From contig CAVTLZ010000002.1 of the NCBI GenBank assembly GCA_963735705.1, positions 14,455 through 78,454 on the forward strand: a stretch of 64,000 nucleotides of DNA, written 5' to 3'. Positions 286 to 53,997 of this stretch are shown here, piece by piece. A program made the translations under genes and the position numbers. The notes beneath the pieces are model-generated. The model was given only the letters and a program-made list of their open reading frames with translations, made no database searches and was not told the DNA's origin. The DNA is from an uncultured Solirubrobacteraceae bacterium (GTDB lineage: Bacteria; Actinomycetota; Thermoleophilia; Solirubrobacterales; Solirubrobacteraceae). How positions within the stretch are numbered: position 1 is the first letter of the stretch; every line of letters starts with the position of its first letter.

Positions 286-921
286 CTAGCCGTTCGCCGT
301 CCCGGGTCCGGCGCCGGCGGCGCCGGGATGCGCGCGGAATCCGCCAAACAGCGCCCTCATGCACTTCGCATCGGCTGCTTTGAACTTGGCGCTGGCCGTG
401 TCGATGCCCTTGGTATTGAAGATCGGGCCCCTGCCGGAGGTGTTCGGGGCCGGGATCTGCACGCCGTTTTCGTTCATGCACGCCGCGAATTTCGCGAGCG
501 CCTGTTTGGCCGCCGGGGTGCTGAAGCGGTTGGCGCCGCCTGGGAGGCGGCCGCGCGGGAAGCCACCACACTTCTTGATGGCCGCTTCGTACTGGGCTTT
601 GCTGACGCCCTTTGGCAGCGCGAAGCCGCCGCCGCCGAGGAAGCCGCCGGCTCCCGGACCCTGGCCGGCTTTGCGTGCGGGCAGCGTGATGCCGTCCTTC
701 TTCAGACATTCGCGGATCGCGGCGAAGCGCCCTTTGGCGGCGCCTGCTGGCCCGCCCGGCGCGGGCGTCGTCGCGCTCGCGCTCGCGTTCTTGCTCGCGG
801 TCGAGGCGGTGTTGGAGGAGGTGCTCGAGGAGCCTCCGCACGCCGCCAGCGCGAGGCTGGCGAGCACGAGGACCAGCGCCGCTGTTACGGGTCTACTGCT
901 CTTGCTGTCGATGTGAGGCAT
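286..921 (-). CDS. Lipoprotein with two Cys-containing repeats
   Basis: Signal peptide with lipobox LAAC; repeats RECLKKDGITLP and AACMNENGVQIP each followed by a later Cys; SD AAGGA; last gene of the ABC operon. Confidence 0.8.
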   Translation of the reverse strand: MPHIDSKSSRPVTAALVLVLASLALAACGGSSSTSSNTASTASKNASASATTPAPGGPAGAAKGRFAAIRECLKKDGITLPARKAGQGPGAGGFLGGGGFALPKGVSKAQYEAAIKKCGGFPRGRLPGGANRFSTPAAKQALAKFAACMNENGVQIPAPNTSGRGPIFNTKGIDTASAKFKAADAKCMRALFGGFRAHPGAAGAGPGTANG

Positions 922-1003
922 TGACTTCCTTTGTTGGTGATCGAGTTGTCGGATTCGTGCCCGCCTGGCAGCGCTCTCCCATCAGCCGGGACTGTAGTCG
1001 TCG

Positions 1004-1630
1004 CTAGCCCCCGCTGCCGAACAGCGAGGGTTCGCCGCTGCCTTTGCCTGTCGAGCTCGAGCTCGAGCTCGCGGCCGTGCCGCCGAACAGCGCCGCCAGC
1101 CCGCCCCCGCTCGATCCGACGCTGATCGTTTCGGCGCTGACGGTCCCGTTCGAGCCGGTGGTGCCGGTGACGGTGACCGTTTCGCCGGGGTGGATGCTCC
1201 TGACGCTGGCCTTGACGGTCTTGCTCACGCTGGTCGCGGCCGAGGTCGTGACCTTGACGGTGTTGCCTTCGGAATCGAGCACATACAGCGTATTGCCGGC
1301 GAGATAGGCGACGGTGCCGGCGGTCGGTCGGGCAAAGCCCGCGCCTGCGGATCCGCTCGCGCCCGCGAGGGCCGAGCCCGCGCCTGCGCCCTCGCGCAGG
1401 GCGCGCAAGCGCGACGCGAACCCCGTCGCTGCGCCGGCGCCGGCGCTCGATGCGGACGGCGATTCGCCCTTCTCGACGAGTACCCCGCCGATGAACCCGC
1501 AGGCGATCAGCAGCACGCCGAGCAGCGCCAGGAAGATCGGGTTGGCCCCCGTCCCGAACAGGCGCCGTCTCGGCCGGCGAGGCAGCTCCTCGGGTTCCTG
1601 CAGCCATTCGTCGGGCTCCTCGTGGGGCAT
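1004..1630 (-). CDS. Membrane-anchored protein with DUF5666-like OB-fold domain
   Basis: SD CAGGAGG 5 nt before ATG 1630; one TM helix; GTV...TLYV...G.TVKV...GETVTVTG pattern; Ser/Gly-rich tail. Confidence 0.7.
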   Translation of the reverse strand: MPHEEPDEWLQEPEELPRRPRRRLFGTGANPIFLALLGVLLIACGFIGGVLVEKGESPSASSAGAGAATGFASRLRALREGAGAGSALAGASGSAGAGFARPTAGTVAYLAGNTLYVLDSEGNTVKVTTSAATSVSKTVKASVRSIHPGETVTVTGTTGSNGTVSAETISVGSSGGGLAALFGGTAASSSSSSTGKGSGEPSLFGSGG

Positions 1631-1658
1631 GGCGGCCTCCTGATGGGGGGAAGTTGGA

Positions 1659-2879
1659 TCACTCAAAGCGCAGCGCTTCGATCGGTCGAAGGTGGGCGGC
1701 GCGCGCCGCCGGGTAGGTGCCGAAGAACAGGCCCGAGGCGAGCGCGGCGCCGAAGGCGAGGAAGATCGAGTAGGTGGCGATCTCCGGATGCACGCCGGCG
1801 ATTTCGAACTGGCTGCCGATCACGCCGACCGCCACGCCGGCGATCCCGCCGAAGAGGGAGACGAGCATCGCCTCGGTCAGGAACTGGTTGAGGATGTCGC
1901 TGCGCCTCGCGCCGACCGCCTTGCGGATGCCGATCTCGCGCGTGCGCTCGGTCACCGACACGAGCATGATGTTCATCACGCCGATCCCGCCGACGAGCAG
2001 CGAGATCGCGGCTACCTCTCCAAGCAGCGTCGTGAACACGCTGCTGGTCGAGCTCGAGGTTTCCAGCAGCGAGCCCTGGTTGAGCACGCTAAAACCGGGT
2101 TCGGCGGTGTCCTTGATCTTGTGGCGTTCCTCGAGGATCGTCGTGACCTCCGCTTCGGAGGCGTTGAGCGAGGATTCGGACTTCGCCTGGACGGTGATCG
2201 AATCGATCGGCCCGGCGCCCGTCAGCGAGTGCTGCACCGTCGTGATCGGGGCCATCACGACGTCGTCCTCGTTGGTGGTCCCGTTCGTCCCCTTTTTCGC
2301 GAGCACGCCGACCACTTCGTAGTTGCTGCCGTTGACCTTCATGTTCTGCCCGACGGCGCTCTGCCCGGCGAACAGTTCCTGCACGACGGTCTGGCCGATC
2401 ACCGCCACGCGCCTGTTCTTTCCCACGTCTTCGGCGGTGAACGCGGCGCCTTCCTGGACGCTGTACGTGTGCGCGGTCAGATACGAGGGGGTGGTGCCGA
2501 CGAACGACGACGGTTCGTAGCTGGTGGCGCCGTAGACGAGTTTCACGCCGGTGGCGTCGACGACGGGGGAGGCGCTCTTGACGTCCGGTGCGAGGCTCGG
2601 GCTCTGCAGCGCTTCGGCGTCCGCTCTGGTCAGCGAGATGCTCGTCGTGGAGCCGGCGCGCGGACCGAAGCGAAAGCCCCCGCTGCCCTGCACCACGAGC
2701 ACGTTCGTGCCGAGGCTCTGGATCGTCGACTGCACCGCCTTGGAGGAGCCGTTGCCGACGGCGATCAGCACGATCACCGAGGCGACCCCGATCGTCATGC
2801 CGAGGATCGTCAGGCCGGAGCGCAGCTTGTTCGCGGTGATCCCGCTCCAGGCGATGCGCAGCATCTCCGGGCCGATCAT
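1659..2879 (-). CDS. ABC transporter permease, MacB/FtsX family
   Basis: NKLRSGLTILGMTIGVASVI; GGIGVMNIMLVSVTERTREIGIRKAVGA; YPAARAAHLRPIEALRFE. Confidence 0.95.
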   Translation of the reverse strand: MIGPEMLRIAWSGITANKLRSGLTILGMTIGVASVIVLIAVGNGSSKAVQSTIQSLGTNVLVVQGSGGFRFGPRAGSTTSISLTRADAEALQSPSLAPDVKSASPVVDATGVKLVYGATSYEPSSFVGTTPSYLTAHTYSVQEGAAFTAEDVGKNRRVAVIGQTVVQELFAGQSAVGQNMKVNGSNYEVVGVLAKKGTNGTTNEDDVVMAPITTVQHSLTGAGPIDSITVQAKSESSLNASEAEVTTILEERHKIKDTAEPGFSVLNQGSLLETSSSTSSVFTTLLGEVAAISLLVGGIGVMNIMLVSVTERTREIGIRKAVGARRSDILNQFLTEAMLVSLFGGIAGVAVGVIGSQFEIAGVHPEIATYSIFLAFGAALASGLFFGTYPAARAAHLRPIEALRFE

Positions 2880-3763
2880 GACTTTGGCTCCATGGCGCCG
2901 GCGGCGGGCGGACGGTGCGCGGACTTCTGGCTGTGCGGCGCGGGCGGTGCATCGTGCACGCCGAGCGTGCGGCGGTCCTCGACGATCTGGCCGTCGCTCA
3001 GGCGGACCACGCGCTTGCTCTGTTCGGCCACGTCCGGCTCGTGGGTGATCAGGACCACCGTGCGGCCTTCTTCGTTCAGCCGCGCGAAGATCCGCAGGAC
3101 GTCCTCGGTCGAATGCGAGTCGAGGTTGCCGGTCGGCTCGTCCGCGAGGATCAGCGCGGGGTTGGTGACGATCGCCCGTGCGACGGCAACGCGCTGTTGC
3201 TGGCCGCCGGAGAGCTCGGAGGGCTGGTGGTGCATGCGGTTGGCCATGCCCACCGAGCGCAGCGCCCGTTCGGCGCGCTTCCTGCGCTTGGCGCCTCGCA
3301 GGCCGGCGTAGGCGAGCGGCAGCTCGACGTTGGCGAGCGCGCTCGTGCGCGCGACGAGGTTGAAGCTCTGGAAGACGAAGCCGATCTTGCGGTTGCGCAG
3401 GTCGGCGAGATCGTCCTCGTCCATCTCGCTGACGTCCACGCCGTCGATCTCATAGCGTCCGCGGGTGGGTACGTCCAGGCAGCCGAGGATGTTCATCAGC
3501 GTGCTCTTGCCGCTACCCGAGCTGCCCATGATCGCCACCAGGTCGCCGGTGTCGATGCGCAGCGAGACGTCGCGCAGGGCGCGCACGTGGATCTGCCCGA
3601 GGTCGAACACCTTGGAGATGTTGTGGACGGCGATCACCGGATGGGTGCGAGGATCGCGCTCGCTTCCCGACGGGCCCTGCCCTGATCGCGGGCGTGCCAC
3701 CAGCGGCCGCTCGCGGGGGACGCGAGGCGGCGCTTGTGTGCGCGAGCGCGCGGGCCAGCGCAT
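2876..3763 (-). CDS. ABC transporter ATP-binding protein, MacB/LolD type
   Basis: Walker A GSSGSGKS, signature LSGGQQQR, Walker B ILADEPTGNLD, H-loop LITHE; start overlaps the upstream stop (TGATG). Confidence 0.95.
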   Translation of the reverse strand: MRWPARSRTQAPPRVPRERPLVARPRSGQGPSGSERDPRTHPVIAVHNISKVFDLGQIHVRALRDVSLRIDTGDLVAIMGSSGSGKSTLMNILGCLDVPTRGRYEIDGVDVSEMDEDDLADLRNRKIGFVFQSFNLVARTSALANVELPLAYAGLRGAKRRKRAERALRSVGMANRMHHQPSELSGGQQQRVAVARAIVTNPALILADEPTGNLDSHSTEDVLRIFARLNEEGRTVVLITHEPDVAEQSKRVVRLSDGQIVEDRRTLGVHDAPPAPHSQKSAHRPPAAGAMEPKS

Positions 3764-5340
3764 CAGCCGCCGCCTCTGAAGAAGGCGGCGCCGCCGCCAC
3801 CGCCGCCGCCGCTGCCGAGACCGCCGCCGAGCGCGGCCCCGCCGCCTGCGAGGCGGCTGAGCCTGGAGGTGAGGCTCGTGGCGCTCGAGCTGCTCGTGCT
3901 CGCCGCCGGTAGGACGACCGTTTCTCCAGCCTTCAGGCCGCTGAGGACGACCGTCGAGCTGTTGCCGGCGAGACCTGTGACGACCCGCTGGCGCGCCTGC
4001 TTGCCGGCGCGCTCGACGGTGACCGTGTCCGCGGTGATCGCGCTGGTCGGGACGTTGAGGCCTTCGGCCTGCTTGACGACGACTTCCGCGGTCGCGCTCA
4101 TGCCCAGCTTCAGACCGGGGGTGAGCTGGTCGAGCTGGAAGGTGACGTCGTAGCTGACCGCGCCGCTGCTGCTCGTCGAGAGCAGCGCCACTTCGCTGAC
4201 GTGCGCCGCCAGCTTGCGTCCTTCGAGCGCTTCGACGGTCACGGTCGCGATCTGGCCGACCTTGACGCTGCCGATTTCCGATTCGCTCAACGGGACCACC
4301 AGCTGCATCGAGCTGAGATCGCTGAGAACGGCGAAGGCGGAGCTCGAGGAGCTGGCGGAGCTGGAGGAGCTGGACGCGCTCGAGGCGGCGGCCGCCGAGC
4401 GGCCCGTCGCGCCGGAGCCGCTGGCTCCCGACCCGCTCGATCCGGAGCCCCCGGAGGAGCCGGTGGCGCTCGAGGCCCTCGTCGTGCCGCTGCCGGAGAC
4501 GACTTCTCCGACCTGCCCGGAGAGCGAGACGATCGTGCCGCTCTCGGGTGCGTACAGGTTGGTGTCCTGCACGGCCTGTTCGTCGCTGTGGACGGTCAGC
4601 GTGTCGCTCCTGACAGCCGCCCGCGCCGAGGCGAGGTTCGCTTCGCGTGTCGCGGTGCTGATTTTTTCCTTTTCCTTGGCTTTTTCCTTCGTGCCTTCGG
4701 ATTCGCCTTCGGCGCGCTTCGATTTCGCGCCCGATCGTTCTTCGGAGCTCGCCGGCGCGGGGGTGCTCTGGCCGGGCGACTTGCTCGTGGGCGAGGTCGT
4801 GGTGGGTGTGGTCGTGGCCGGCGTGCTCGCCGGCGTCGTCGTGGTCGTCGCGCCCGCCGAGGCGGTGGCCGCCGGGTCGGTCTGCGCGACGGCTGTCTCG
4901 CGTACGGAGGCGGCCGACGCGGAGCCGCCGCTTGCCGCGCCCGCTGCGCTCGAGCCTTCGCCGTCGGTTTCTTCCTCCTTGGCGAGGTTGGCTTCTGCGG
5001 ACTGCAGGGTCGCCTTCGCCTGTTCGAGGGTCACTTCGGCGCTCTGCGGGTCGAGGCTCGCCAGCAACTGGCCCTGCGCGACGTGCTCGCCCTGGGTGAC
5101 GAAGATGTGCGTGACCGTTCCGCCCGTCTTGAAGCCGAGGTTGAGCTGATTGAGCGCCTGCAGGTTGCCGCTGCCGGAGACCGTCGACTGCACCACGCCC
5201 TGGGCGACGGTCGCGGTGCGCGTCACGGTCGCCTGGCTGCTCGACGCCGGTCCCACGACGAGCACGGCGGCCACGATCGCGCCGGCGCAGAGAGCTCCCA
5301 GCACGTAGACGACCCAGGATGCTCCGGTGCGCTCGGTCAT
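3763..5340 (-). CDS. Efflux periplasmic adaptor (MacA/HlyD-like membrane fusion protein) with low-complexity inserts
   Basis: N-terminal TM; lipoyl halves GGTVTHIFVTQGEHVAQGQLLASLD and LYAPESGTIV; beta-barrel SESEIGSVKVGQ; LKLGMSATA; GLKAGETVV. Confidence 0.9.
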   Translation of the reverse strand: MTERTGASWVVYVLGALCAGAIVAAVLVVGPASSSQATVTRTATVAQGVVQSTVSGSGNLQALNQLNLGFKTGGTVTHIFVTQGEHVAQGQLLASLDPQSAEVTLEQAKATLQSAEANLAKEEETDGEGSSAAGAASGGSASAASVRETAVAQTDPAATASAGATTTTTPASTPATTTPTTTSPTSKSPGQSTPAPASSEERSGAKSKRAEGESEGTKEKAKEKEKISTATREANLASARAAVRSDTLTVHSDEQAVQDTNLYAPESGTIVSLSGQVGEVVSGSGTTRASSATGSSGGSGSSGSGASGSGATGRSAAAASSASSSSSSASSSSSAFAVLSDLSSMQLVVPLSESEIGSVKVGQIATVTVEALEGRKLAAHVSEVALLSTSSSGAVSYDVTFQLDQLTPGLKLGMSATAEVVVKQAEGLNVPTSAITADTVTVERAGKQARQRVVTGLAGNSSTVVLSGLKAGETVVLPAASTSSSSATSLTSRLSRLAGGGAALGGGLGSGGGGGGGAAFFRGGG

Positions 5341-5413
5341 TGCGTTGCTCTCAATGCTGGTCGGGGCCTGTAAGAGAGTGCGAAGAAAGGCTGCAAGCAG
5401 GCGTAAATTCAGC

Positions 5414-11498: not shown

Positions 11499-12653
11499 AT
11501 GTCAGCCACGAATGGCTCGACTGCTTCGTTCCGACGACTGGTCGGATGCTGCATGGCGCTCGCGCTGCTGGTTTCAGCGATGCTCGCGTCGACCGTCTCG
11601 AACGCGTCTGCCGCGCCAGTGCTCAAACCGACGGCCTACGTGGCGATCGGCGACTCGCTCGCGTTCGGTTACAAAGAGGCGACGTTCTATGCCAACCAGG
11701 CCGCGAACAAAACGGCTTGTGAAAAATTCGAACAGGCCGCGTGTGAGCCCGCTTCGTCCTTCGAACCGGGATACGTCGGCGACTTCGCCAAGAAACTGGC
11801 GAAAGTGGAAAAGAAAGCCGGCAACGGCCTCGCGACGTTCAACCTGGGCTGCCCCGGTGAGACGAGCGGCGGCGTGATCGGCAACGGCCCGCTGGGCACA
11901 GGGCTTGAAGAACTGCGTGCCGCCAAATCGGAAGGCGCGCTGCACGTGTCGGCGGCCTGTGGTTACACGTACACCGATGGCTTCCCGCTGAAGACGAACC
12001 TGGAGGGTGCGTCGGAGCTCGAATACGCCGTCGGCCTGCTGCTGCACGGTGTGAACATCACGGCTGTGACGATCAACATCGGCTCCAACGACGAGCTCGC
12101 GAGCGTCGCTCAGTGCGAGAACCCGGCGTATGACGCGGAACAGGGCTACTCGAGCTTCGTGCAGTGCCTCGAGACCGAAGCCAGCGAAGCCGGTCACGAG
12201 TACCCGGGTGGTCTGTTCACCCACATCCTGACCAACATCGGCGTCGACATCGGCGTGCTGCGCGAATACGGGTACAAAGGCCAGGTCGTCGTGCTCGGCT
12301 TCTACAACCCGCAGGCGCTGGTGCTTGCCGGCAGCGACGAACTTCAGGAGGCGCTCAACGCGCACCTCGAAGGCGCGGTCGCCGGGAAAGCGTATGGCCC
12401 AGGTGTGGTCGTCGCCAACCCGTTCGACAAGTTCAACTTCACGCCTGGCAAGTCGGCCAAAAAACAGCAGGAAAACCTCGAAAAGTACACCGAATACTTC
12501 AACGCATCGGACAAAAAAATCAACCTCGAAAAAACGGTCGGCCACGCAGTGACCGCGGAAGAAGCGGCGCTTGACCCCGAAGGTGACATCCACCCGACGG
12601 CGGCCGGTTACCAGGAGATGGGCAACCTGGTCTGGAAGGCCTTCGGCAAGTAG
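11499..12653 (+). CDS. Secreted SGNH/GDSL hydrolase
   Basis: Signal peptide ending ASA; blocks GDSL, NLGCPG, IGSND, DIHP; several Cys pairs. Confidence 0.88.
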   Translation: MSATNGSTASFRRLVGCCMALALLVSAMLASTVSNASAAPVLKPTAYVAIGDSLAFGYKEATFYANQAANKTACEKFEQAACEPASSFEPGYVGDFAKKLAKVEKKAGNGLATFNLGCPGETSGGVIGNGPLGTGLEELRAAKSEGALHVSAACGYTYTDGFPLKTNLEGASELEYAVGLLLHGVNITAVTINIGSNDELASVAQCENPAYDAEQGYSSFVQCLETEASEAGHEYPGGLFTHILTNIGVDIGVLREYGYKGQVVVLGFYNPQALVLAGSDELQEALNAHLEGAVAGKAYGPGVVVANPFDKFNFTPGKSAKKQQENLEKYTEYFNASDKKINLEKTVGHAVTAEEAALDPEGDIHPTAAGYQEMGNLVWKAFGK

Positions 12654-14660: not shown

Positions 14661-16115
14661 GTGGCGGAGGTGCCAGTCGCCCTCAAGACCACCGTCACCG
14701 AGCTCGGGGACTCGCGCGTACGCCTGCAGGTGCAGGTCCCTCCCGGCGAGGTCGAGGGTCGCCTCGAGCGCAAGGCTCAGCAGCTCGGGCGCGACCTGAA
14801 GCTCCCGGGCTTTCGGCGCGGCAAGGTGCCGGCGCCACTGGTGATCCAGCGGATCGGGCGCGAGGTGGTGCTCGAGGAGGCCGTACGCGACACGCTCTCC
14901 AGCTGGTACTCGGATGCGATCGAGAGCGCCGGCATCGTGCCGGTCGGCGACCCGAAGCTCGATCTGGGTGAGCTGCCCTCGCACGGTCAGGCGCTGGAGT
15001 TCTCGATCGAGATCGGCGTGCTCCCGAAGGCCGAGCTCGGCGACTACAAGGGCCTGGAGGTCGGCCGCCGCGAGCCGGAGGTCGCAGACGAGCAGATTCA
15101 GCAGGAGATCGACGCCATGCGCGAGCGCCTGGCGCGGTTGGAGACCGCTGAGCGTCCCGCGGCCGCGGGCGACTTCGTGGTCGTCGACTACGTCGGCTCG
15201 CTCGCGACCGACGCTCCCGACGGCGAGCGCACATGGGAGCCGTTTGCCGGCGGTGAGGGTCGCGACCAGCTCGTCGAGCTCGGCGCCGGCAACCTCATTC
15301 CTGGCTTCGAGGAGGGGCTGCTGGGCGCGGTCGCGGGCGAGACCCGGACCGTCCCGCTCACGTTCCCGGCCGACTACGGCAGCGAGGAGCTGGCGGGGCG
15401 TGAGACGTCATTTGAGATAACCGTCAAGGAGGTCAAGCTCAAGGAGCTCCCGGAGGTGAACGAGGACTTCGCGCTCGACGCCGGCTTCGACGATCTGGAC
15501 GAGCTGCGCGAGGACATTCGCACACGCCTGCTGGAGGTCGACGAGCAGCAGATCAGGGCGGAGTTCCGCCAGGCGGCGCTCGACGCGGCGGTGGCAGCCG
15601 CGAGCGTGGCGGTCACACCCGAGCTCGTCACCGCGCGGGCGCGCGAGATGTGGGAGCGGATGCTGCACTCGCTCTCCCACCGCGGGATCCCGCGCGAGGC
15701 GTACCTGCAGATCTCCGGGCGCGAGGAGGCGGACATCGTCAAGGAGATGGAGCCGGAAGCCGAGCTCGCGCTGCGCCGCGAGGCCGTGATCACGGCGGTC
15801 GTCGTCGCCGAGGGCATCGACCCGTCCGAGGAGGACCTGCTGGCGGCGCTCGCACCGATCGCCGAGCGGGAAGGGATCGAGCCCCAGAAGCTGCTCGAGG
15901 AACTGAGCCGCGGCGGACGTCTGGACGAGGTGCGCGAGGATCTCGCCGCGCGCGAGGCGATCGATCTGATCGCCGCCGCCGCGAAGCCGATCCCGCTCGC
16001 GCAGGCCCAGGCGCGAGAGCAGCTGTGGACGCCCGCGAAGGCCGCCGAGGAAGCGAGCGCAGCGGCCGGCGAGTCTGCGTCCGCGCCGGCGCGACTGTGG
16101 ACCCCCACCGATTGA
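14661..16115 (+). CDS. tig: Trigger factor
   Basis: LPGFRRGKVP signature; FKBP domain with LIPGFEEGLLG and TFPADY; upstream of clpP-clpX. Start may be GTG 14670 (TATCGT 7 nt upstream). Confidence 0.97.
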   Translation: MAEVPVALKTTVTELGDSRVRLQVQVPPGEVEGRLERKAQQLGRDLKLPGFRRGKVPAPLVIQRIGREVVLEEAVRDTLSSWYSDAIESAGIVPVGDPKLDLGELPSHGQALEFSIEIGVLPKAELGDYKGLEVGRREPEVADEQIQQEIDAMRERLARLETAERPAAAGDFVVVDYVGSLATDAPDGERTWEPFAGGEGRDQLVELGAGNLIPGFEEGLLGAVAGETRTVPLTFPADYGSEELAGRETSFEITVKEVKLKELPEVNEDFALDAGFDDLDELREDIRTRLLEVDEQQIRAEFRQAALDAAVAAASVAVTPELVTARAREMWERMLHSLSHRGIPREAYLQISGREEADIVKEMEPEAELALRREAVITAVVVAEGIDPSEEDLLAALAPIAEREGIEPQKLLEELSRGGRLDEVREDLAAREAIDLIAAAAKPIPLAQAQAREQLWTPAKAAEEASAAAGESASAPARLWTPTD

Positions 16116-16196
16116 GGACCGGCCGGCTAGCCTAGTAGAGGAATCTGGCCGGCGAGGCGAAACAAAGGCGAGGACTATGCGCCGGAAGCGAGGACA

Positions 16197-16781
16197 ATGA
16201 GCCCACTAGTACCAATGGTCGTCGAGCAGACCTCACGCGGCGAGCGTGCGTTCGACATCTACAGCCGCCTGCTCAACGAGCGGATCATCTTCCTCGGCAC
16301 GCCCATCGACGATCAGATCGCGAACCTGATCGTCGCCCAGCTGCTGCACCTCGAGTCCGAGGATCCCGAAAAGGATGTCTCGCTCTACATCAACTCACCC
16401 GGCGGCTCGGTGTATGCGGGCCTGGCGATCTACGACACGATGCAGTTCATCAAGCCCGACGTGCAGACGATCTGCGTCGGCATCGCGATGTCGATGGGCG
16501 CGTTGCTGCTGGCCGGCGGGGCGGCGGGCAAGCGCATGGCGCTGCCCAACGCCAAGATCCTGATCCACCAGGTTTCCTCGAGCTTCCAGGGCCAGGCGAC
16601 GGACATCGAGATCCACGCCAAGGAGATCATCGACGTGCGCCGGCGCCTGGATGAGATCATCGCCAAGCACACCGGCAAAGACCTCGAGCAGGTGCGCAAC
16701 GACACCGAGCGCGACTACTTCATGAGCTCGGAGGAGGCCAAGGAGTATGGCATCATCGATCGAGTGATTTCCGAGCATTAG
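16197..16781 (+). CDS. clpP: ATP-dependent Clp protease proteolytic subunit
   Basis: [25 protein letters not shown] (Ser), LIHQ (His), ERDYFM (Asp). Confidence 0.98.
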
Positions 16782-16826
16782 CTCGGGGACTCACACGGTC
16801 GCCGGCAGCAGGGAGCGTCAAGGGAT

Positions 16827-18107
<1,281 letters not shown>

Positions 18108-21640: not shown

Positions 21641-22834
<1,194 letters not shown>

Positions 22835-37112: not shown

Positions 37113-38348
37113 ATGCACTACTCGATCGTAGATCGCGGGAGGCATCGTCTCGCGCTCATTTGCACGGCGCTGATCGCAGCGTCGCTCGCTTACGGCCTCA
37201 CCGCGCTCGTCGCCACGGCTCGCGCCGAAGGTCCCGGGTCGGGCACGCCGACCGTCGTCAGCCTCGGCGACTCGTTCATCTCCGGGGAGGCGGGACGCTG
37301 GGCCGGCAACACCGACGAAAGCTCATCCAAGACCGACGCGCTCGGCTCGACCGCGTACTACGACAACTCCACCGACACCGGCGAACTGATCAAAGGCTGC
37401 CACCGCTCCAAATCGGCCGAGGTCTACATCGGCGGCGGCGTCAACGGCGAGAACCTCGCCTGCTCCGGCGCCAAGACCTCCAGCTTCAGCACCGAAGGCC
37501 TGTTCAAGCCCGGCATCGACTTCTACAACTCAGGTGGCAACGAAGGCCAGGCGCTGATGCTCCAGCACTTCGCAGCCACCCACAACGTCAAGCTCGTCGC
37601 GCTGTCGATCGGCGGCAACAACTTCAACTTCGCCCCCATCGTCACGACGTGCGTCGAGGACTTCCTCGAGTCGACGATCTTCTGGGACTTCTACTGCAGC
37701 GAAGAAAGCTCGGTCACGAACAACTTCACCTCCGGCAACGTCTCCAAAATCAAGGGTGAAATCGAAACGGCGATCAGGAACGTGGCCACGGCCATGACCA
37801 ACGCGGGCTACACCAGCTCGCAGTACACGATCCTCGTGCAGAACTACCCCTCGCCGATCCCCAACGGATCGGAATTCCGCTACACGCAGAGCGGCTACAG
37901 CAGGCAGTTCACGGGCGGCTGCGGCTTCTGGAACAAGGACGCCAACTACGCCAACGCGACGATGCTGCCGACGATCGACAACACCGTCCTCGGCGCCGCC
38001 GCCGGCGTCGGCCTGTCCAACGTGAAGACGATGGAATTGTCCTCCGCGTTCAACAGCCACCGCCTGTGCGACAAAGGCGTCGGGATGCTGGAGGAAGAGG
38101 GCCTGTCCAACTGGAAAGCGGCCGAAGCGGTAAACAAGAGCGAGTGGTTCAACCAGATCCGCACGATCGAAACGCTGATCGGGCCCTACGAACTCCAGGA
38201 AGACATCCACCCCAACTACTGGGCACAGCTGGGGCTGCGCAACTGCCTGACCCAGGCATACGACGCGGGCACGCCCAAGGGCGGCGCCTGCACCACATCC
38301 GGCACCGGCCTCAACTCCGCCGGCGAGCCGAACATGTCGCTGCACTGA
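37113..38348 (+). CDS. Secreted SGNH/GDSL hydrolase
   Basis: Signal peptide ending ARA; GDSF, NLACSG, IGGNN, DIHP; multiple Cys. Confidence 0.88.
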   Translation: MHYSIVDRGRHRLALICTALIAASLAYGLTALVATARAEGPGSGTPTVVSLGDSFISGEAGRWAGNTDESSSKTDALGSTAYYDNSTDTGELIKGCHRSKSAEVYIGGGVNGENLACSGAKTSSFSTEGLFKPGIDFYNSGGNEGQALMLQHFAATHNVKLVALSIGGNNFNFAPIVTTCVEDFLESTIFWDFYCSEESSVTNNFTSGNVSKIKGEIETAIRNVATAMTNAGYTSSQYTILVQNYPSPIPNGSEFRYTQSGYSRQFTGGCGFWNKDANYANATMLPTIDNTVLGAAAGVGLSNVKTMELSSAFNSHRLCDKGVGMLEEEGLSNWKAAEAVNKSEWFNQIRTIETLIGPYELQEDIHPNYWAQLGLRNCLTQAYDAGTPKGGACTTSGTGLNSAGEPNMSLH

Positions 38349-40628: not shown

Positions 40629-43600
40629 ATGCTTCATCTCGCCCGACTCTCGATCCTCCGGCCGAAGGGCGCGCTGCTCGCATGGGGCCTCGTCGCCGTC
40701 GTCCTCGCCGTGATCGGGCTCGGCGTCGCGCACTCGCTGTCGCCGTCGATCGTCGTTGTGCCCGGCACCGAGTCATCGCGCGCGCAGCAGCTCGCAAACG
40801 CGCACTTCGGGCCCACGCAGCTCGTGCCGATCCTGTTGCAGGCCCCCGCCGCCGACGTCGCGCGGCTCGAACGCCAGGGCCCGGGGCTCGTACGCGCCCT
40901 GGCCAAGCGCCCGCACACGCGCGTGCTCTCCGCCTGGGACGGTGGCGTCGCCGCCGAAGGGCTGCGTCCGTCGAGGACCGCCGCGATGATCGTCGTCTCC
41001 GTCGACCGCTCCGAAAAGGACGTCGTCGACTACGACCAGCCGCAGATCGAACGGCTCGTAGCGCATGACATCACCGGGCCGGTGCGCGCGAGCGTCACCG
41101 GTCAGCCGTCGATCGACCGCGCGCTCAAGAACGAAGCGCTGAGCACCGCGCTGCGCTCCGAGCTGATCGCCGTCGCGATCCTGTTCGTGCTGCTGCTGCT
41201 CGCGCTGCGCGCGCCGCTCGCCGCCGCCGCCGTCACGCTCGTCGGCGCCGCGACCGTGCTCGCCGCCTACGGGCTGATGGCGCTGCTCGCGCTCGTCATC
41301 GAAACAGACCCGATCGCCGTCGCGCTCGCCTCGATGACCGGGCTCGCGCTCGGCGTCGGCTACTCGCTGCTGATCCTCGACCGCTTCCACCAGCAGGAGC
41401 AGCTCCCCGACGCGGATCCGCGCGACGTCGCGCTCGCGGCCTCCACCGCAGTCGCGACGACCGGCCGCGCCGTGCTGTTCGCCGGCTCCGGCCTGATCCT
41501 CGCGCTGCTGCTCGCCACCGCGATCGCGCCGACCAAGATCCTCGTCTCGCTGGGGATCGGCGTGCTGCTCTGCTCGACGCTCGCGCTTGGCGGCGCCGTC
41601 GTCGTCATGCCCGCCGCGCTCGTCCTGTTCGGACGCCGCCTGATAGCTGCCCATGGCGCCGCGCCGGCGACGATCACGCGCGACTGGGATCGCCTCGTCG
41701 GCGCCGGTGTCTGGATCAGGCACCGCGCCGTCATCGCCGGCGCCCTGGCCACCGCGGCGCTGCTCGCGCTCGCGATCCCCGCGCTGTCGCTGCGGACCGG
41801 GCCGCCGGGCGTCAGTCAGCTGCCCGCCGGCAACCCCGCACGCAGGTCCTTCGAAACGGTCGCGCGCGTGATGGGGCCGGGCTGGCCGACCCCGTACAAC
41901 CTGATCGTCGTCAACCCGCGCGGACCGATCACCACCGCCGCCGCGCTTGAAGCGCTCGACCGTCTGCAGGAACAGATCGCCGCCGACCGCCGCGTCGCCG
42001 CCGTCACCGGCCCGGGCGAGCTCAGCGCGCAGACCAAGCCGCTCGGCAAGCTGCCGACCTCGCTCGCCGAATCGGGCAAGCTGCTCACCGGCGGCAAGAG
42101 CGACCTGCAGCGCCTGGTCAACGGACTCGGCCAGGCCGGCAGCGGCGCCAAGCAGCTGCAGAGCGGCCTGCGCTCGGCGAGCACCGGCGCCGGCAAGCTG
42201 CACAGCGGCTCAGGCAGCGCGCAGTCCGGCGCCGGCGAACTGCATGCCGGGCTCGCCGCCGCACGCAGCGGCTCGGCCAAGCTCTCCGCCGGCCTCAGCC
42301 AGGCGCTCGCCGGGGCGGGCGCGCTCAAGAACGGCGCCACGCAGGCGCTCGCCGGCTCGATCGAACTCGCCAACGGGCTCGGCTCCGCGCACACGCCCGT
42401 ATCCGCAAGCCTGCCGTCGCTGAAACAGCTCGCCGGGCTGACCGCGAGCACCAACAGCACGCTCGACGGCCTGCAGGGCCAGGCGCAGGGCGCCGCCTCC
42501 GACCTCGCCGGCGCGACGGAAGCGCTGCGCGGCATGAGCGCCGGCAAGAGCGACCCCCGCTATGGCGAAGCGCTCGCCGCGCTCGAACACGCCGCGGGCG
42601 CGCTCGGCGGCGTCACCAGCGGGCTCGGCGGCGTCGCACCGGAAACCAAGAGCGCCGCCGAAATCGCCGCCAGCGCGGCCACGCAGGGCTCGTTCCTGGC
42701 GAGCGCGCTCGCCCAGCTGCACACCGGCGCCGCGCAGCTGCAGGCGGGCCTCGCGAAGCTGCGCACCGGCGACGTGCAGCTAGCCTCGGGCATCGGCAAG
42801 CTTTCCGGTGGCAGCGGCGAATTGACGAGCGGGCTGACACAGCTGCGCGACGGCGCCGGCGCGCTCGAAACAGGGCTCGGCGAACTGACGAACGGCACCG
42901 GCCAGCTCGAAAGCGGGCTCGCCGGCGGCGTCTCGCCGACCGGCCAGCTCGTCAACGGCCTCGGCGTGATGCAGAAGAGCGTCGCCAAGTTCAGCGGCCA
43001 GCTGCCCTCGCCGAAGGAGCTCGAAGAACTGCACACGAAGTCGCCCGGGCTGTTCAACTCCGGCTACTTCCTGCTCGCCGCGATCGCCGGCGCGCCAGCC
43101 GCGAGCGCCAACGCCGCCGGCTTCACGGTGAACGTCACGCGCGGCGGCGACTCCGGGCAGATCGTCGTCATCTCCCGCTATGGCGCGAGCGCCTCGCAGA
43201 CCGCCGCGCTCGGTCAGCGCCTGGACCGGATCGCGCGCAGCTTCGCCGCGCGCAACCACCTCGAGGTCGCCGTCGGCGGCCCCGCCGGCGACCTCGCCGA
43301 CTTCACCAGCGCGACCAACGCGCGCCTGCCGTGGGTGATCGTCGCGCTCGCGCTCGCCGTCGCGCTGACGCTCGGGCTCGCGCTGCGCGCGGTCGCGCTG
43401 CCGATCGTCGCCGTGCTCTTCAACCTGCTCACCGCCGCCGCCACGTTCGGCGCCATGCGCCTGCTGTTCGGCGGCGCGCACCCGCCGTTGGGAGGCCCCG
43501 GATACCTCGATCCGATGTCGATCGTCGGCATCTTCACGACGATCTTCGGGATCTCGCTGATCTTCCTCGTCGTGCTGCTCGCGCGCACGCGCGAAGAGAT

Positions 43601-44000
43601 CGTGGCGGGCGCCGGCGTCGATCGCGCGCTGGACATCGCCCTGCGGCGCACCGCCGCGGCGAGCACCGGCGCGGGCCTCCTGATGATCGCCGCCGTGATC
43701 CCGTTCGCGACCACCGGCCTGTTGACCGTGCGCGAGTTCGGCGTCGGCGTCGCGATCGCCGTGGCGCTCGACGCGTTCCTCGTGCGCCCGGTGCTGCTGC
43801 CGGCGGCCGTCGAGGCGCTCGGCCGCCGCGCCTGGTGGCCGACGCGCGCGGGTCGGGTGGAACTACGGATGCCAGAGCCGCAGAGCGCCCCGATGAATGT
43901 GGCTGGCAATGGCCATAACGTCGGCGACATGGCATCCGCCGATGCGAGTTCGCAGGCGGATGCGAATCTGCAGGAACCGATGGAGGAGGAGATCCGATGA
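40629..44000 (+). CDS. MMPL family transporter with x-x-x-Leu-x-x-Gly heptad-repeat loop
   Basis: VTGQP, GVGYSLLI..RF, GRAVLFAG, TPYNLIV, VGGPAG, GIS..FLV..RTREE; many L..G..QL..G repeats. Confidence 0.92.
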   Translation: MLHLARLSILRPKGALLAWGLVAVVLAVIGLGVAHSLSPSIVVVPGTESSRAQQLANAHFGPTQLVPILLQAPAADVARLERQGPGLVRALAKRPHTRVLSAWDGGVAAEGLRPSRTAAMIVVSVDRSEKDVVDYDQPQIERLVAHDITGPVRASVTGQPSIDRALKNEALSTALRSELIAVAILFVLLLLALRAPLAAAAVTLVGAATVLAAYGLMALLALVIETDPIAVALASMTGLALGVGYSLLILDRFHQQEQLPDADPRDVALAASTAVATTGRAVLFAGSGLILALLLATAIAPTKILVSLGIGVLLCSTLALGGAVVVMPAALVLFGRRLIAAHGAAPATITRDWDRLVGAGVWIRHRAVIAGALATAALLALAIPALSLRTGPPGVSQLPAGNPARRSFETVARVMGPGWPTPYNLIVVNPRGPITTAAALEALDRLQEQIAADRRVAAVTGPGELSAQTKPLGKLPTSLAESGKLLTGGKSDLQRLVNGLGQAGSGAKQLQSGLRSASTGAGKLHSGSGSAQSGAGELHAGLAAARSGSAKLSAGLSQALAGAGALKNGATQALAGSIELANGLGSAHTPVSASLPSLKQLAGLTASTNSTLDGLQGQAQGAASDLAGATEALRGMSAGKSDPRYGEALAALEHAAGALGGVTSGLGGVAPETKSAAEIAASAATQGSFLASALAQLHTGAAQLQAGLAKLRTGDVQLASGIGKLSGGSGELTSGLTQLRDGAGALETGLGELTNGTGQLESGLAGGVSPTGQLVNGLGVMQKSVAKFSGQLPSPKELEELHTKSPGLFNSGYFLLAAIAGAPAASANAAGFTVNVTRGGDSGQIVVISRYGASASQTAALGQRLDRIARSFAARNHLEVAVGGPAGDLADFTSATNARLPWVIVALALAVALTLGLALRAVALPIVAVLFNLLTAAATFGAMRLLFGGAHPPLGGPGYLDPMSIVGIFTTIFGISLIFLVVLLARTREEIVAGAGVDRALDIALRRTAAASTGAGLLMIAAVIPFATTGLLTVREFGVGVAIAVALDAFLVRPVLLPAAVEALGRRAWWPTRAGRVELRMPEPQSAPMNVAGNGHNVGDMASADASSQADANLQEPMEEEIR

Positions 44001-49819: not shown

Positions 49820-49932
49820 GAGCTGCACGAAGGCGTTGCGAGCGGGGCGTCCGGGTGATGGGAGTGCGGGCGCGCGCCGGCGATCGCGCGGGCGTCGAGC
49901 GAGCCCTCGCGGCGGCGCCTACCGAGGGTGCG

Positions 49933-50409: not shown

Positions 50410-50538
50410 GGCACGCCCGTCAAACCGCTCGATCCGGCTCGAGAAAGCAGATGCGATCCGCTCACTCTCATCGCACCTTCACAGTAGCCGCTCGGGCATG
50501 CGTGTTGTGGCACTTGCCGTTGTGGCACCATCCGGCTG

Positions 50539-50835: not shown

Positions 50836-50899
50836 CGGGCGCCCGCGCGTGGCCGTCCCTGGACGCCGCCGACGAGCACCAGCGCGACGCGGGCGGCGC

Positions 50900-51871: not shown

Positions 51872-51962
51872 CGTGTGCTCAGGCTAGACGGTTGCGCCGG
51901 GTGTAGGTGTGGTCCCACGAAAACCCGGCGCGTGGCACTTGTCAGAAACCTGTGAGCGGCGG

Positions 51963-51992
51963 TTGACAGGTGTGTCCGGGTCGCACTACTCT
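51963..51992 (+). promoter_or_regulatory. Sigma-A type promoter
   Basis: TTGACA-N18-TACTCT upstream of the FN3/IPT gene. Confidence 0.65.
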
Positions 51993-52086
51993 AGTCACCG
52001 CCACGGGTTCCGATCAGGCGACTTTGCTTCACGCGCTTGCTCGGGAGGTTGGCAAACGGAGGGGACAAAACGATCGGAGGGGCACG

Positions 52087-53997
52087 ATGCTTGGGCGAGG
52101 GATACGTCGCGGTCGGGGACAGGAAGGACCGGGGGATGGGACGAGCGCGCCGCGTAGGGGGATGGCGGCGCTCAGACGCCCCCTGCTCGCGGTGCTGGTG
52201 CTCGCGCTTGCGCTCGTCGGGGTGGGCGCGGTCAGCGCTCTCGCCGGGGGCGGCGCGCCGACGGTCGAACTTGAAAAACCGAGCGGTGTGGGGCGCACCG
52301 GATTCGTGCTGAACGGGTTCGTGAACCCGAACGGCGCGCCCGTCAGCGAATGCTATTTCGAATACGGCACCTCGGAAGCGTCGCTCAGCAGCCAGGCGCA
52401 GTGCTCGTACTCGCCCGGCACGGGCGAAACGCTGGTCCCGGTCGAAGCCGCGGTCGAAGGCCTCGCCGAAACGACCACCTACTTCTACCGCATCCACGCC
52501 AAGAGCACGGCCGGCGAAAGCTCGAGTGTGGTGCACGAAGTCACGACGCTGCCCACCGGGCCCAGGTCCAACACCGAACCTCCGAAGACGGTAGGGCGAA
52601 CGACGGCGACGCTCGACGCGTTCATCACGCCGAACGACTCGGAAGTCACCGAATGCTTCTTCTACTGGGGCACGACGCCGGGCGAACTCGACAACAAGGC
52701 CCAGTGCTCGCCCGAACCGGGGAGCGGCAGCGAACCGGTCGCCGTCAGCGCGACGCTCACCGGTCTGTCCGAAAGCACCGTCTACTACTACAAGGTCGCG
52801 GCGCGCAACGCCTACGCCTTCGAAGACGGCGGCAGGGTGAAATTCGAAACGCTGCCGAGCGTGCCCAACGCCAATACCGAACCGGCGCGCGCGATCGGGC
52901 ACACGACGGCGACGCTGAAAGGGTTCGTGACCCCCAACGACGCGCTCGTCGAAGCCTGCTACTTCGAGTGGGGCTCGCACTCGATCGAAGAAAACGTCGC
53001 GCCGTGCGAACCGGCGAGCCTCGGCTCCGGCGAAGAACCGGAGGCCGTCTCGGCGCAGCTGACGGGCCTGAAAGAAAGCGAAACCTACAGCTACCGCCTG
53101 GTCGCGACCAACGGTCGCGGCACGAACATCGGCGGCGGCATGCGCTTCACGACGCTGCCCGCGCTGCCGAAAGCACTCGTCAAAAAACCGACCGAACTGA
53201 CCTCCGAATCGGCGCTGCTGCGGGGGTCGTTGAACCCCGAAGACGCGCCGATCACCGAATGCACGTTCGAATACGGCACGACGCCGGCCTTCGGCAAAAG
53301 CGCGAGCTGCAACATCCTGCCGGGCGCCGGTGAAAGCTACGTCAAAGTGACGGCGTCGGTGAGCGGGCTCAGCCCGACCACTTCCTACCTCGTGCGGCTG
53401 CGGGCGAGGAATGTGTACGGGGTCGTGTACAGCGAGAAAGAACCGTTCACCACGTTCGCCGCCGGGCAGCTGCCCGTCGTGAAGAAGATCAAACCGGCCA
53501 AGGGCAGCTCCGCCGGCGGCACCACGGTCACGATCAAAGGCGAATTCCTGTCGGGGGCGACCGCCGTCACGTTCGGCGAAACCGAAACGACGAACATCAC
53601 CCACAACTCGCCCGAAATGATCACGGTGGTCTCGCCCCCGGGCGTGGGCACGGTGGACGTCACCGTCACCACCGCAAGCGGCGAGAGCGCGACGACCAGC
53701 GCCGATCGCTTCACCTACGGCGGCCCGACGGTCAAAGGCGTCAGCCCGAGCAGCGGCTCGGTCGGTGGCGGCACCGAAGTCACGGTGACCGGCAGCGGCT
53801 TCGAACCGGGCGCCTCGGGGACGACGTTCGTGTTCGGCAAAGGCGCCGCCACGTCGGTGGAATGCAGCTCGAGCACGACCTGCACGATGGTCTCGCCCCC
53901 CGCTTATAAGGGCAAAACGGGGACGGTGCAGGCGCGGGCGACGGTGGGCGGCAAGAAGAGCCCGGCCGCGACCGATTACTTCAGCTACACGGGGTAG
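52087..53997 (+). CDS. Secreted protein with four FN3-like repeats and two IPT/TIG domains
   Basis: SD GGAGG; signal peptide ending ALA; four repeats of NP..(V/I).EC.F.(Y/W)G...C...GL....Y.(Y/V)(R/K); two P..G...GGT.VT..G modules. Confidence 0.85.
   Translation: MLGRGIRRGRGQEGPGDGTSAPRRGMAALRRPLLAVLVLALALVGVGAVSALAGGGAPTVELEKPSGVGRTGFVLNGFVNPNGAPVSECYFEYGTSEASLSSQAQCSYSPGTGETLVPVEAAVEGLAETTTYFYRIHAKSTAGESSSVVHEVTTLPTGPRSNTEPPKTVGRTTATLDAFITPNDSEVTECFFYWGTTPGELDNKAQCSPEPGSGSEPVAVSATLTGLSESTVYYYKVAARNAYAFEDGGRVKFETLPSVPNANTEPARAIGHTTATLKGFVTPNDALVEACYFEWGSHSIEENVAPCEPASLGSGEEPEAVSAQLTGLKESETYSYRLVATNGRGTNIGGGMRFTTLPALPKALVKKPTELTSESALLRGSLNPEDAPITECTFEYGTTPAFGKSASCNILPGAGESYVKVTASVSGLSPTTSYLVRLRARNVYGVVYSEKEPFTTFAAGQLPVVKKIKPAKGSSAGGTTVTIKGEFLSGATAVTFGETETTNITHNSPEMITVVSPPGVGTVDVTVTTASGESATTSADRFTYGGPTVKGVSPSSGSVGGGTEVTVTGSGFEPGASGTTFVFGKGAATSVECSSSTTCTMVSPPAYKGKTGTVQARATVGGKKSPAATDYFSYTG

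Follow-up and report, generated by a model that had tools for sequence, protein, structure and literature searches.

This study shows that an uncultured Solirubrobacteraceae bacterium (assembly GCA_963735705.1), together with its clade, chooses between the two glutamate codons, and to a lesser extent between the two lysine codons, according to the final place of the encoded residue. The DNA in question is a stretch of 64,000 nucleotides of contig CAVTLZ010000002.1, called the window throughout (C2:14455-78454, the contigs of the assembly being denoted by C and a number), which encodes MreB, MreC, RodA and the class B penicillin-binding protein PBP2, among others. GAA and AAA are enriched in segments outside the cytoplasm, and the choice follows domains, residues and membrane side, in both directions, and not whole genes. 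This partition is explained by no published mechanism. The mechanism that we tentatively favour, at somewhat below an even chance, is a product-level difference, that is, one visible in the finished protein.

Our gene calls for the assembly (4.06 Mb, 70% GC, 13 contigs, 92% completeness) were made with a dicodon model of our own, with overlaps resolved greedily and ribosome-binding sites used to help choose the starts, and comprised 3,639 genes at a coding density of 87%. Export status was assigned by simple hydrophobicity rules covering the N-terminal h-region, transmembrane (TM) windows of 19 residues and the lipobox; these rules are crude, and the resulting misclassification could only weaken the contrasts reported here, not create them.

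Genes without a signal peptide or TM segment showed a pooled GAA/(GAA+GAG) of 0.128 (47,045 Glu codons), and genes with a signal peptide or N-terminal anchor one of 0.456 (11,059 codons). For lysine, the AAA fraction was 0.125 in the cytoplasmic class versus 0.254 in the signal-peptide/N-anchor class, in agreement with the rise of AAA that the initial annotation of the window had noted in several of the same genes. The mature parts of predicted lipoproteins (n = 71) reached 0.65 for GAA and 0.24 for AAA. Over all Glu codons of the genome, GAA has a share of 18.9%, and it is the majority codon in hundreds of genes. The 11 other A/G-ending pairs and the 8 T/C-ending pairs were flat between the classes (CAA, 0.091 cytoplasmic versus 0.080 exported; GCA, 0.098 versus 0.101), and other rare codons (TTA, CTA, GTA, AGA, GCA and others) were not enriched in the exported class. 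The GC content at third positions (GC3) over the remaining codons was 0.902 in cytoplasmic and 0.901 in exported genes. The GAA contrast was strong in a per-gene Mann-Whitney test (p = 2e-63; area under the curve 0.77 with the crude predictor) and was present in every GC3 stratum. The initial annotation had argued that the pattern is not general AT drift and had named loss of the association under GC3 control, or an equal rise of all A-ending codons, as outcomes that would speak against it; the association survived this control, and the A-ending codons did not rise equally. AT drift, low expression and horizontal transfer are ruled out by the equal GC3 elsewhere and by the absence of a shift in any other codon pair. 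Avoidance of Shine-Dalgarno-like sequences is likewise ruled out, since the inside/outside ratio of GAA is independent of neighbouring bases (3.4-4 fold for any next base and 2.7-3.9 fold for any preceding base) and GGA is not avoided either.

The contrast was also observed within single proteins. In exported proteins chosen on their distal part, the GAA share was about 0.2 in the n-region of the signal peptide, 0.73 in the ten codons that directly follow the h-region and flat at 0.60-0.80 across codons +1 to +160 past it. Because no lag of 30-40 codons follows the signal peptide, an effect of ribosome docking is not supported. Codon choice changed at a membrane segment from 3/22 GAA on the N side to 30/32 on the C side in C13:66098, from 2/13 to 17/19 in C4:207171, and from 3/21 to 15/21 in a PknB-like protein. 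Among 238 single-TM proteins, four differed between the two sides at p<0.001 with 0.24 expected, and the C side was GAA-rich in all four. The opposite change, a return to GAG, was found in FtsH (9/10 GAA in the loop, then 5/56 in the cytoplasmic domain) and in C6:8382 (17/17 in the loop, 0/20 in the cytoplasmic domain). The GAA share also varied with the next residue, from 0.24-0.34 before Leu, Ile or Arg to 0.5-0.7 before Gly, Ala, Cys or Tyr; the synonymous codon of that residue (Ser, Thr, Val, Pro) had little effect, apart from the small-n exceptions Arg AGG and Leu TTG. The initial annotation had considered a regulatory switch in the spirit of the Streptomyces bldA/TTA system, which does not fit a codon that follows domains rather than genes and accounts for 19% of Glu codons.

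The same rule was found across several routes of export. Flagellar axial proteins, which are type-III exported without a signal peptide and were confirmed by Pfam, had 138/197 GAA and 37/78 AAA when pooled with the rod proteins (GAA in FliC 34/41, FliD 28/36, FlgK 25/32, FlgL 17/24, FlgE 13/23), versus 25/255 and 2/26 in cytoplasmic flagellar proteins (FliG, FliM, FliN, FliI, FliH, FliJ, FliS, FliW and others; Fisher p = 5e-42 for Glu and p = 2e-4 for Lys). A Rieske protein of the twin-arginine (Tat) type had 4/7 GAA in its outside domain and 0/2 ahead of the membrane segment, and four twin-arginine candidates together had 37/75. In a prophage-like region, the shell domain of an HK97-type capsid protein (PF05065 on residues 201-438) had 10/17 GAA versus 0 of 21 Glu codons in residues 1-243, mostly the N-terminal delta or scaffold part (hypergeometric p ~4e-5, with GAG counts read by hand from the translations); the large terminase of a second prophage-like region had 3/27. 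As a capsid never passes a translocon, these data point to the final place of the residue rather than to membrane crossing. The proposal in the initial annotation that pausing serves Sec or signal recognition particle targeting is thus contradicted by the missing lag after the signal peptide, by the return of GAG in cytoplasmic domains such as that of FtsH, and by the validity of the rule for flagellar, Tat-type and capsid proteins.

One further protein touches on the Tat route. The gene at C4:366777-368180 (-) encodes 467 residues without a signal peptide, has 19/36 GAA, and is tentatively taken for a tyrosinase from its N-terminal sequence. Streptomyces tyrosinase is exported by Tat piggy-back on a helper protein. 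By analogy, GAA content may serve as a flag for Tat hitch-hikers such as this candidate tyrosinase.

The clade sample comprised 80 loci fetched through PBP2 from uncultured Solirubrobacteraceae and Solirubrobacterales genomes (PBP2 identity 59% to 91%), and the outgroup sample comprised 40 other Thermoleophilia genomes, 38 of them with enough ectodomain sequence to judge. The pattern that the initial annotation had noticed in a single window was carried by all 80 relatives, with GAA at about 0.07 in cytoplasmic orthologues and at 0.43-0.78, mostly 0.55-0.78, in the ectodomains of MreC and PBP2, and by 0 of the 38 other class members, including members of five more genera in the same GTDB family, with PBP2 about 40% identical. 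Outgroup GAA was 0-0.1 in both compartments when the genome was GC-rich and 0.25-0.3 in both when it was AT-richer.

Within the clade, the codon was conserved column by column. In a set of 36 taxa thinned to <85% PBP2 identity, and over columns with a conserved amino acid, the between-column fixation F of codon choice in PBP2 and MreC was 0.92 for Glu, 0.72 for Lys and 0-0.41 for other residues, the last of which means that synonymous sites in general are well mixed. PBP2 E51, E334, E428 and E701 are GAA in 80-81 of 81 orthologues, E222 and E281 are GAG in 81/81, and E511 is GAG in 78 of 79 Glu codons; K349 is AAA in 79/81, and the catalytic K419 (SxxK) and K661 (KTG) are AAG in 81/81. E281 supplies the glutamate of the class-B motif G-x-x-G-x-E and is matched by Glu in solved structures. 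In general, Glu and Lys that are universally conserved in the ectodomains have GAG and AAG. Similarly, both CtaC copies encode the CuA ligand Glu by GAG, although one copy is GAA at 10/14 overall. This conservation indicates that each codon is held site by site under purifying selection. The clade-fixed GAG columns have 80% Glu among outgroup residues, and the clade-fixed GAA columns of cytoplasmic proteins have Glu at 0.76. At the clade-fixed GAA columns of exported proteins, outgroup residues were D 0.21, E 0.17, Q 0.16 and A 0.09, and at clade-fixed AAA columns Lys made up 20% of outgroup residues, with most other residue columns 40-70% conserved. Most GAA and AAA columns are therefore clade-specific gains at once-variable surface sites that were afterwards kept.

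At functionally critical sites, AAA was excluded completely. It was found at 0/134 true P-loop lysines (G-x-x-G-x-GK[ST]; background 9%, p = 6e-6), 0/31 true catalytic lysines of SDR proteins, and 0/657 codons of 22 invariant Lys columns; the same columns in AT-richer relatives had 25/144 AAA (17.4%, with a background of 17.4%). Eight P-loop lysines with AAA under a loose Walker A pattern (GxxxxGK[ST]) were all chance matches and not real P-loops. For GAA, the counts were 0/44 at true ABC Walker-B glutamates versus a background of 10%, and 4.4% over 50 invariant Glu columns versus 7.8% overall; invariant Glu columns in AT-richer relatives had 23.7% versus 25.1%. At catalytic motifs, the depletion of GAA and AAA was more than 10-fold, and that of the rare Asp codon GAT, which has its tRNA in common with GAC, was only about 1.5-fold at catalytic Asp.

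The conserved GAA reader of the clade is a five-armed tRNA of 96 nt (C8:107159-107254), with a 7-bp UUCG-capped hairpin inserted in the D-loop. It has the anticodon UUC in the loop CUUUCAA, A37, A73, a 7-bp acceptor stem and a T arm, and scores 66.2 bits to RF00005. Leaving the hairpin aside, it shares 76% identity with the tRNA-Arg(ACG) of the genome, including the same acceptor and D stems, and is unlike any tRNA-Glu. Its identity features are mixed: the stems are Arg-like, but position 35 is U and not C, the hairpin disrupts the A20 region, and A73 is as in the clade tRNA-Glu(CUC). A canonical bacterial tRNA-Glu(UUC) (class I, RF00005) is alike in the UUC anticodon, A37, A73, the 7-bp acceptor stem and the T arm, and differs from the clade tRNA in the latter's D-loop hairpin, its acceptor and D stems of the tRNA-Arg(ACG) type and its lack of a Glu-type D arm. 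The five-armed tRNA was found in 14/14 clade genomes, namely this one and 13 others in which it is 97-100% identical, and was absent from 10/10 outgroup genomes and from one partial record of 1.4 Mb. Conversely, the canonical tRNA-Glu(UUC), with the acceptor GCCCCC and a GUCUAGCGG-type D arm, was found in 7/10 outgroups and in 0/5 complete clade chromosomes. Variants of the five-armed tRNA include a compensatory T-stem change (GAGGG/CCCTC to GCGGG/CCCGC). The full-length tRNA, hairpin included, is also present in contigs of four metatranscriptome assemblies, and one of these contigs consists of gene positions 5-96 alone. No conserved translation-related gene was found among its neighbours. A motif scan, weak as a test, revealed neither an additional EF-Tu nor a SelB-like factor. 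The link to tRNA suggested in the initial annotation is borne out insofar as there is a separate U34 tRNA for GAA and for AAA and the GAA reader was replaced in exactly the trait-bearing clade. A programme common to all tRNAs with the xm5s2U modification, as was also suggested, is contradicted by CAA, which does not respond.

Several other observations concern glutamate tRNAs and their charging in this genome. The only UUC tRNA called outright by aragorn, a tRNA-Glu(ttc) at C1:70849-70925, was rejected as the GAA reader, being weak and absent from all relatives. It has U1-A72, TCCGATC as its T-loop and two anticodon-stem mismatches, and probably either is a pseudo-tRNA or was acquired recently. 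At C9:78441-78551 (-) lies a class-II tRNA-like gene of 111 nt with a D arm of the tRNA-Leu type; its variable arm is very long, the discriminator is A73 and the anticodon loop carries UUC (Glu). It scores 51.7 bits to RF00005 and was likewise rejected as the clade reader since it occurs in this genome only (no full-length match in 24 other genomes); if LeuRS charged it, GAA would be misread as Leu. The five-armed tRNA gene is the integration site of an island of about 27 kb (C8:79926-107254). At C8:79926-79976, adjoining the gene that flanks the tRNA in relatives, there is a 51-nt duplicate of the tRNA 3' half, and the cargo includes an integrase-like gene, transposases and an exported protein of 3,050 residues with 207/261 GAA. 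The catalytic domain of GluRS (PF00749), present in every relative, had no match in this assembly, and tRNA-Ala(UGC/CGC) was also missing; both are probably assembly gaps, given the completeness of 92%.

Concerning lysine, the genome encodes two class-II lysyl-tRNA synthetases (LysRS) that are 45% identical, one of them in the usual greA-lysS-clpC context. The other, LysRS2 (C12:522476-523966), is full length with an anticodon-binding domain, and its stop codon overlaps the start of KamD, the alpha subunit of D-lysine 5,6-aminomutase (PF09043, 732 bits). The B12-binding beta subunit KamE and a P-loop protein of 380 residues follow, and this four-gene order was kept in 5/5 clade loci examined. 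The known substrates of 5,6-aminomutases are D-lysine and beta-lysine. KamD and orthologues of LysRS2 with at least 76% identity were each found in 12/14 clade genomes and 0/10 outgroups, and a thirteenth clade genome has a LysRS2 copy of 60% identity beside a decayed one. The operon is a gain of the clade. Two clade genomes (G154 and G163) carry a second, divergent LysRS2-KamD pair of 59-60% identity; in G154, the copy nearest to the LysRS2 of this genome (76-92% identical) is fragmented, and KamD contains a stop codon. The pocket of LysRS2 reads E-F-M after motif 2 and V-S-G-D-T-E before motif 3, where canonical enzymes have E-x-Y and x-N-x-[FY]-x-E, positions that we take, from LysU and LysS structures, to surround the lysine side chain. 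E-F-M was conserved in 119/120 and VSGDT in 120/120 clusters of close LysRS2 orthologues. Among 150 diverse LysRS representatives, only a handful had altered pockets beyond two truncated LysRS2-like entries (72-95% identity). By these sequence features, LysRS2 resembles a synthetase for a lysine isomer. No dedicated tRNA for an altered lysine was found; the anticodon of the five-armed tRNA is that of Glu, and this tRNA has no partner aminoacyl-tRNA synthetase.

Distant LysRS paralogues with altered pockets were also observed on metagenome contigs from JGI (loci L236-L239), in clusters for amino-acid metabolism. One has ThiF/ThiS on one side and a fatty-acid desaturase, a PALP enzyme and a JAB protease on the other; a second is placed between ArgG and AstA/AstB/ArgH. 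These paralogues may belong to an uncharacterised LysRS-like family that activates lysine analogues.

The initial annotation had linked GAA to export by manual tallies in the window, and a recount with our own gene calls gave near-identical values (Table 1), including the partial exception of the anti-sigma-like ectodomain. The cytoplasmic ROK protein of the window had 3/21 GAA. An exported protein of 264 residues at 62280-63074 (-), with no Pfam match, has a GC3 of 0.64 (genome about 0.90), 19/27 GAA and 7/15 AAA; it looks like a recent acquisition, yet it obeys the codon rule.

Table 1. Glutamate and lysine codons in genes of the window (positions counted from its first nucleotide; Pfam marks names confirmed by Pfam)
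Feature	Position	Strand	Codon counts and remarks
FN3/IPT(TIG) protein, exported	52162..53997	+	GAA 43/47, AAA 15/25; Pfam
PBP2, class B penicillin-binding protein, N-anchored ectodomain	24441..26630	+	GAA 38/54
MreC, N-anchored, exported	22902..23843	+	GAA 9/13; E252 and E253 GAA in 75-76/76 orthologues
MreB, cytoplasmic control, same operon as MreC	21788..22834	+	GAA 3/34
SGNH/GDSL hydrolase, secreted (SGNH-1)	11553..12653	+	GAA 21/32, AAA 15/23; Pfam (GDSL)
Second exported protein (SGNH-2 of the initial annotation; no Pfam match)	37113..38348	+	GAA 16/25
HlyD-type efflux adaptor, N-anchored	3763..5340	-	GAA 25/31; Pfam
FtsX-type permease, four TM, large outside loop (residues 42-288)	1659..2879	-	Loop 11 GAA/4 GAG; rest 2 GAA/6 GAG
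MMPL transporter	40629..44000	+	GAA 26/39, concentrated in outside loops 81-169 and 409-800; GAG in C-terminal tail; Pfam
RodA	26627..27862	+	6 of the 7 GAA codons in the large loop between predicted TM6 and TM7 (residues 231-305)
Lipoprotein	286..921	-	GAA 3/3, AAA 6/16
Anti-sigma-like single-pass protein	54068..55279	-	Ectodomain GAA 6/17; partial exception
Tig, ClpP, ClpX, cytoplasmic controls	14661..18107	+	GAA 4/67, 1/15, 6/45
RNase E/G (Rne), cytoplasmic control	28028..30193	+	GAA 7/76
Membrane protein, four N-terminal TM and large soluble C-terminal domain (presumed cytoplasmic)	59641..61791	-	GAA 3/43

The explanation to which we lean, with less than even confidence, is that the outcome of decoding GAA and AAA differs from that of GAG and AAG in the finished protein. 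Such a difference is suggested because the codon follows final location alike under Sec, Tat and flagellar type-III export and under phage lysis, which only a property that persists in the finished protein could do. GAG and AAG, read by C34 tRNAs, would encode cytoplasmic and functionally critical Glu and Lys, and GAA and AAA, read by U34 tRNAs, would encode exposed positions in segments ending outside the cytoplasm. Decoding would be strictly one codon by one tRNA, and the A-ending codons would give another residue or an isomer, or else a less homogeneous product. A candidate route for AAA is that the lysine 5,6-aminomutase makes a lysine isomer, which LysRS2 would charge onto tRNA-Lys(UUU); for GAA, the five-armed tRNA would deliver Glu or a close acidic analogue. 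An extracellular benefit, for instance resistance to the outside milieu, is speculation. The most specific form of this reading, a compartment-directed code expansion in which AAA would be wholly or partly a lysine isomer (e.g., 2,5-diaminohexanoate) and GAA a Glu-like residue distinct from that of GAG, is in our judgement rather unlikely.

Several observations weigh against an altered product, most directly those on the residue at GAA. Obg E38 and FolC E125, invariant cytoplasmic glutamates that in outgroups are 100% Glu and for the most part GAG, are clade-fixed as GAA (the outgroup codon of Obg E38 is GAG in 27/29), and MreB E49 is clade-fixed GAA as well, with GAG in 30/33 outgroup Glu codons; therefore, the residue at GAA must work as Glu. 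The acidic fraction of the ectodomains equals that of outgroups only with GAA counted as acidic (PBP2, 10.9% versus 10.6%); in PBP2, a loss of about 10 Asp stands beside a gain of about 26 GAA. Together, these sites and the charge balance point to an acidic, Glu-competent residue, either Glu or a close analogue, so that any difference between GAA and GAG must be subtle or partial. Reading GAA as Asp, Arg or Lys fits neither the column profiles nor the charge balance, and reading it as Gln via GatCAB was rejected as the five-armed tRNA has G1-C72, not U1-A72, and GAA occurs at invariant Glu. In addition, no second GluRS was found, the clade having a single one, no Glu-altering enzyme acting on tRNA was found, and glutamate mutase, a source of a Glu isomer, is absent from the clade. 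On the lysine side, tRNA-Lys(UUU) is canonical and common to outgroups without the pattern, and one clade genome shows the AAA pattern in an assembly without LysRS2 and KamD. Moreover, as two altered-pocket paralogues lie in unrelated metabolism clusters, LysRS2 may serve small-molecule chemistry or resistance instead of translation. The capsid evidence comes from one gene only, and a capsid search and an exact tRNA-hairpin search in viral contigs gave no match. We know of no precedent for natural sense-codon expansion.

Mechanisms with an identical product, through speed or fidelity of decoding, are jointly possible but on the doubtful side. If scarce or odd tRNAs slowed GAA and AAA, segments might be kept export-competent, or translation might be coupled to export; the aberrant structure of the GAA reader fits this idea, as does the finding that substrates exported unfolded (Sec, flagellar type-III) have the highest GAA (0.65-0.70) and folded Tat-type proteins less (about 0.5). 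However, there is no lag after the signal peptide, GAG returns in cytoplasmic domains translated after membrane insertion, Tat-type proteins still have 4-6 times the cytoplasmic GAA level, and the GAA-rich capsid shell crosses no membrane; other rare codons are not enriched, and particular ectodomain sites have GAA in 0/81. We consider slow decoding, taken alone, improbable. Somewhat more improbable still is a fidelity mechanism with nominally the same product, by which error-prone A-ending codons were purged from critical sites and the excess outside reflects a separate benefit, such as sparing of the major isoacceptors or surface heterogeneity. The much stronger depletion of GAA and AAA than of GAT at catalytic motifs, and the lack of such avoidance in AT-richer relatives, are what it would predict. 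It gives no reason, however, for GAG at exposed, non-critical Glu of cytoplasmic domains, for GAA held at 70-90% against GC pressure, or for GAA fixed at the invariant glutamates of Obg and FolC. That the true explanation is one so far unthought of is possible, though unlikely.

The remaining alternatives appear far less probable. A gene-level regulon, in which tRNA(UUC) and tRNA(UUU) tune synthesis of the secretome through their abundance, their charging or their modification at U34, would account for the restriction to codons of U34 tRNAs and has a eukaryotic precedent in AA-ending codons of secreted effectors (bioRxiv 10.1101/2025.11.10.687658; PMC11705076), but it is already contradicted by the partition by domain inside genes in both directions, CAA is uninvolved, and the codon is fixed site by site; we regard it as very unlikely. 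Just as unlikely is a signal in the mRNA, such as RAA-rich segments that a membrane-associated RNA-binding protein or an RNase would bind or spare. Its sole support is that both codons have the form R-A-A, whereas the contrast does not vary with the adjacent base on either the 5' or the 3' side, other amino acids show no rise of their A-ending codons, GAG is conserved at critical ectodomain sites, and the delta and shell domains of the capsid lie on one mRNA. The initial annotation had also raised a footprint of Asp-to-Glu remodelling, and a mutational or historical origin of this kind (GAC to GAA, with Asn-to-Lys changes for lysine, in fast-evolving exported proteins) finds some support in Asp as the commonest outgroup residue at clade-fixed GAA columns of exported proteins and in the exchange of Asp for GAA codons in PBP2. 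Remodelling is partly borne out, but it does not explain the third-position A kept against GC pressure or GAG at other sites of the same domain. Same-column synonymous sites of other residues are mixed (F 0-0.3), yet GAA is kept in 81/81 over saturated divergence; equally fast-evolving cytoplasmic proteins (NadD, FolC, Maf) stay GAG, and most single-step routes to Glu yield GAG. As a full explanation, a footprint is the least probable of all.

Full-text literature searches found no description of codon choice that follows the membrane side, of the five-armed tRNA architecture or of the pairing of LysRS with an aminomutase. The nearest published cases are a gene-level codon bias of effectors in Magnaporthe and a Thr-to-Asp reassignment of ACA in Acidimicrobiales. 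In Magnaporthe oryzae, AAA, CAA and GAA are enriched in mRNAs of secreted cytoplasmic effectors and depend on tRNA U34 thiolation (bioRxiv 10.1101/2025.11.10.687658; PMC11705076). As in the clade, A-ending Glu and Lys codons of U34 tRNAs mark proteins that leave the cell; the fungal case, however, is eukaryotic, acts at the level of the gene through translation efficiency and includes CAA, whereas the rule of the clade works per residue and domain, excludes CAA, and comes with site-by-site fixation and a replaced cognate tRNA. In uncultivated Acidimicrobiales, the sense codon ACA has been reassigned from Thr to Asp (bioRxiv 10.64898/2026.05.03.722492). Codon capture of this type (Osawa-Jukes) is similar in that a high-GC, uncultured actinobacterial clade has a codon that is rare in sister lineages, has replaced the cognate tRNA by one with foreign identity features, and shows the codon reappearing off the old amino-acid positions. 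It differs in that no canonical amino acid fits the GAA columns here and GAA still stands at invariant Glu, and the split of usage by cell compartment is unlike any known reassignment.

Further systems are comparable in part. The pyrrolysine system (pylT, pylS, pylBCD) also places a synthetase paralogue with a remodelled pocket beside a lysine-rearranging enzyme in one clade, PylB making methylornithine and KamDE of the clade a diaminohexanoate isomer. Pyrrolysine, however, uses a stop codon and a dedicated tRNA, whereas the clade would use a sense codon, no dedicated lysine tRNA was found, and incorporation is only proposed. The bldA/TTA system of Streptomyces likewise ties a rare A-ending codon of a high-GC actinobacterium to one tRNA, but it concerns few regulatory genes with a whole-gene effect, whereas GAA follows topology within genes. 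Bacterial signal peptides and early coding regions reportedly have a bias towards rare codons and AAA, which similarly links non-optimal codons to export. That bias concerns the signal peptide or the first tens of codons; in the clade, the n-region is GAG-rich and the bias spans the whole mature ectodomain.

Synonymous codons are assumed to be interchangeable save for speed, accuracy and effects on mRNA; here, two pairs are kept apart site by site by the final place of the residue, in a large group of abundant soil bacteria that also have a tRNA of a shape not described before and an additional aminoacyl-tRNA synthetase operon. In these genomes, the GAA fraction alone predicts extracytoplasmic segments, including flagellar parts and a capsid shell that have no signal peptides. 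Either inside and outside versions of Glu and of Lys have arisen in this lineage, through natural code expansion or dual decoding, or a co-translational process of a kind so far unknown senses the final location of each residue. The standard translation of metagenome-assembled genomes of this clade may be subtly wrong, and its system is a candidate source of orthogonal tRNA and synthetase parts.

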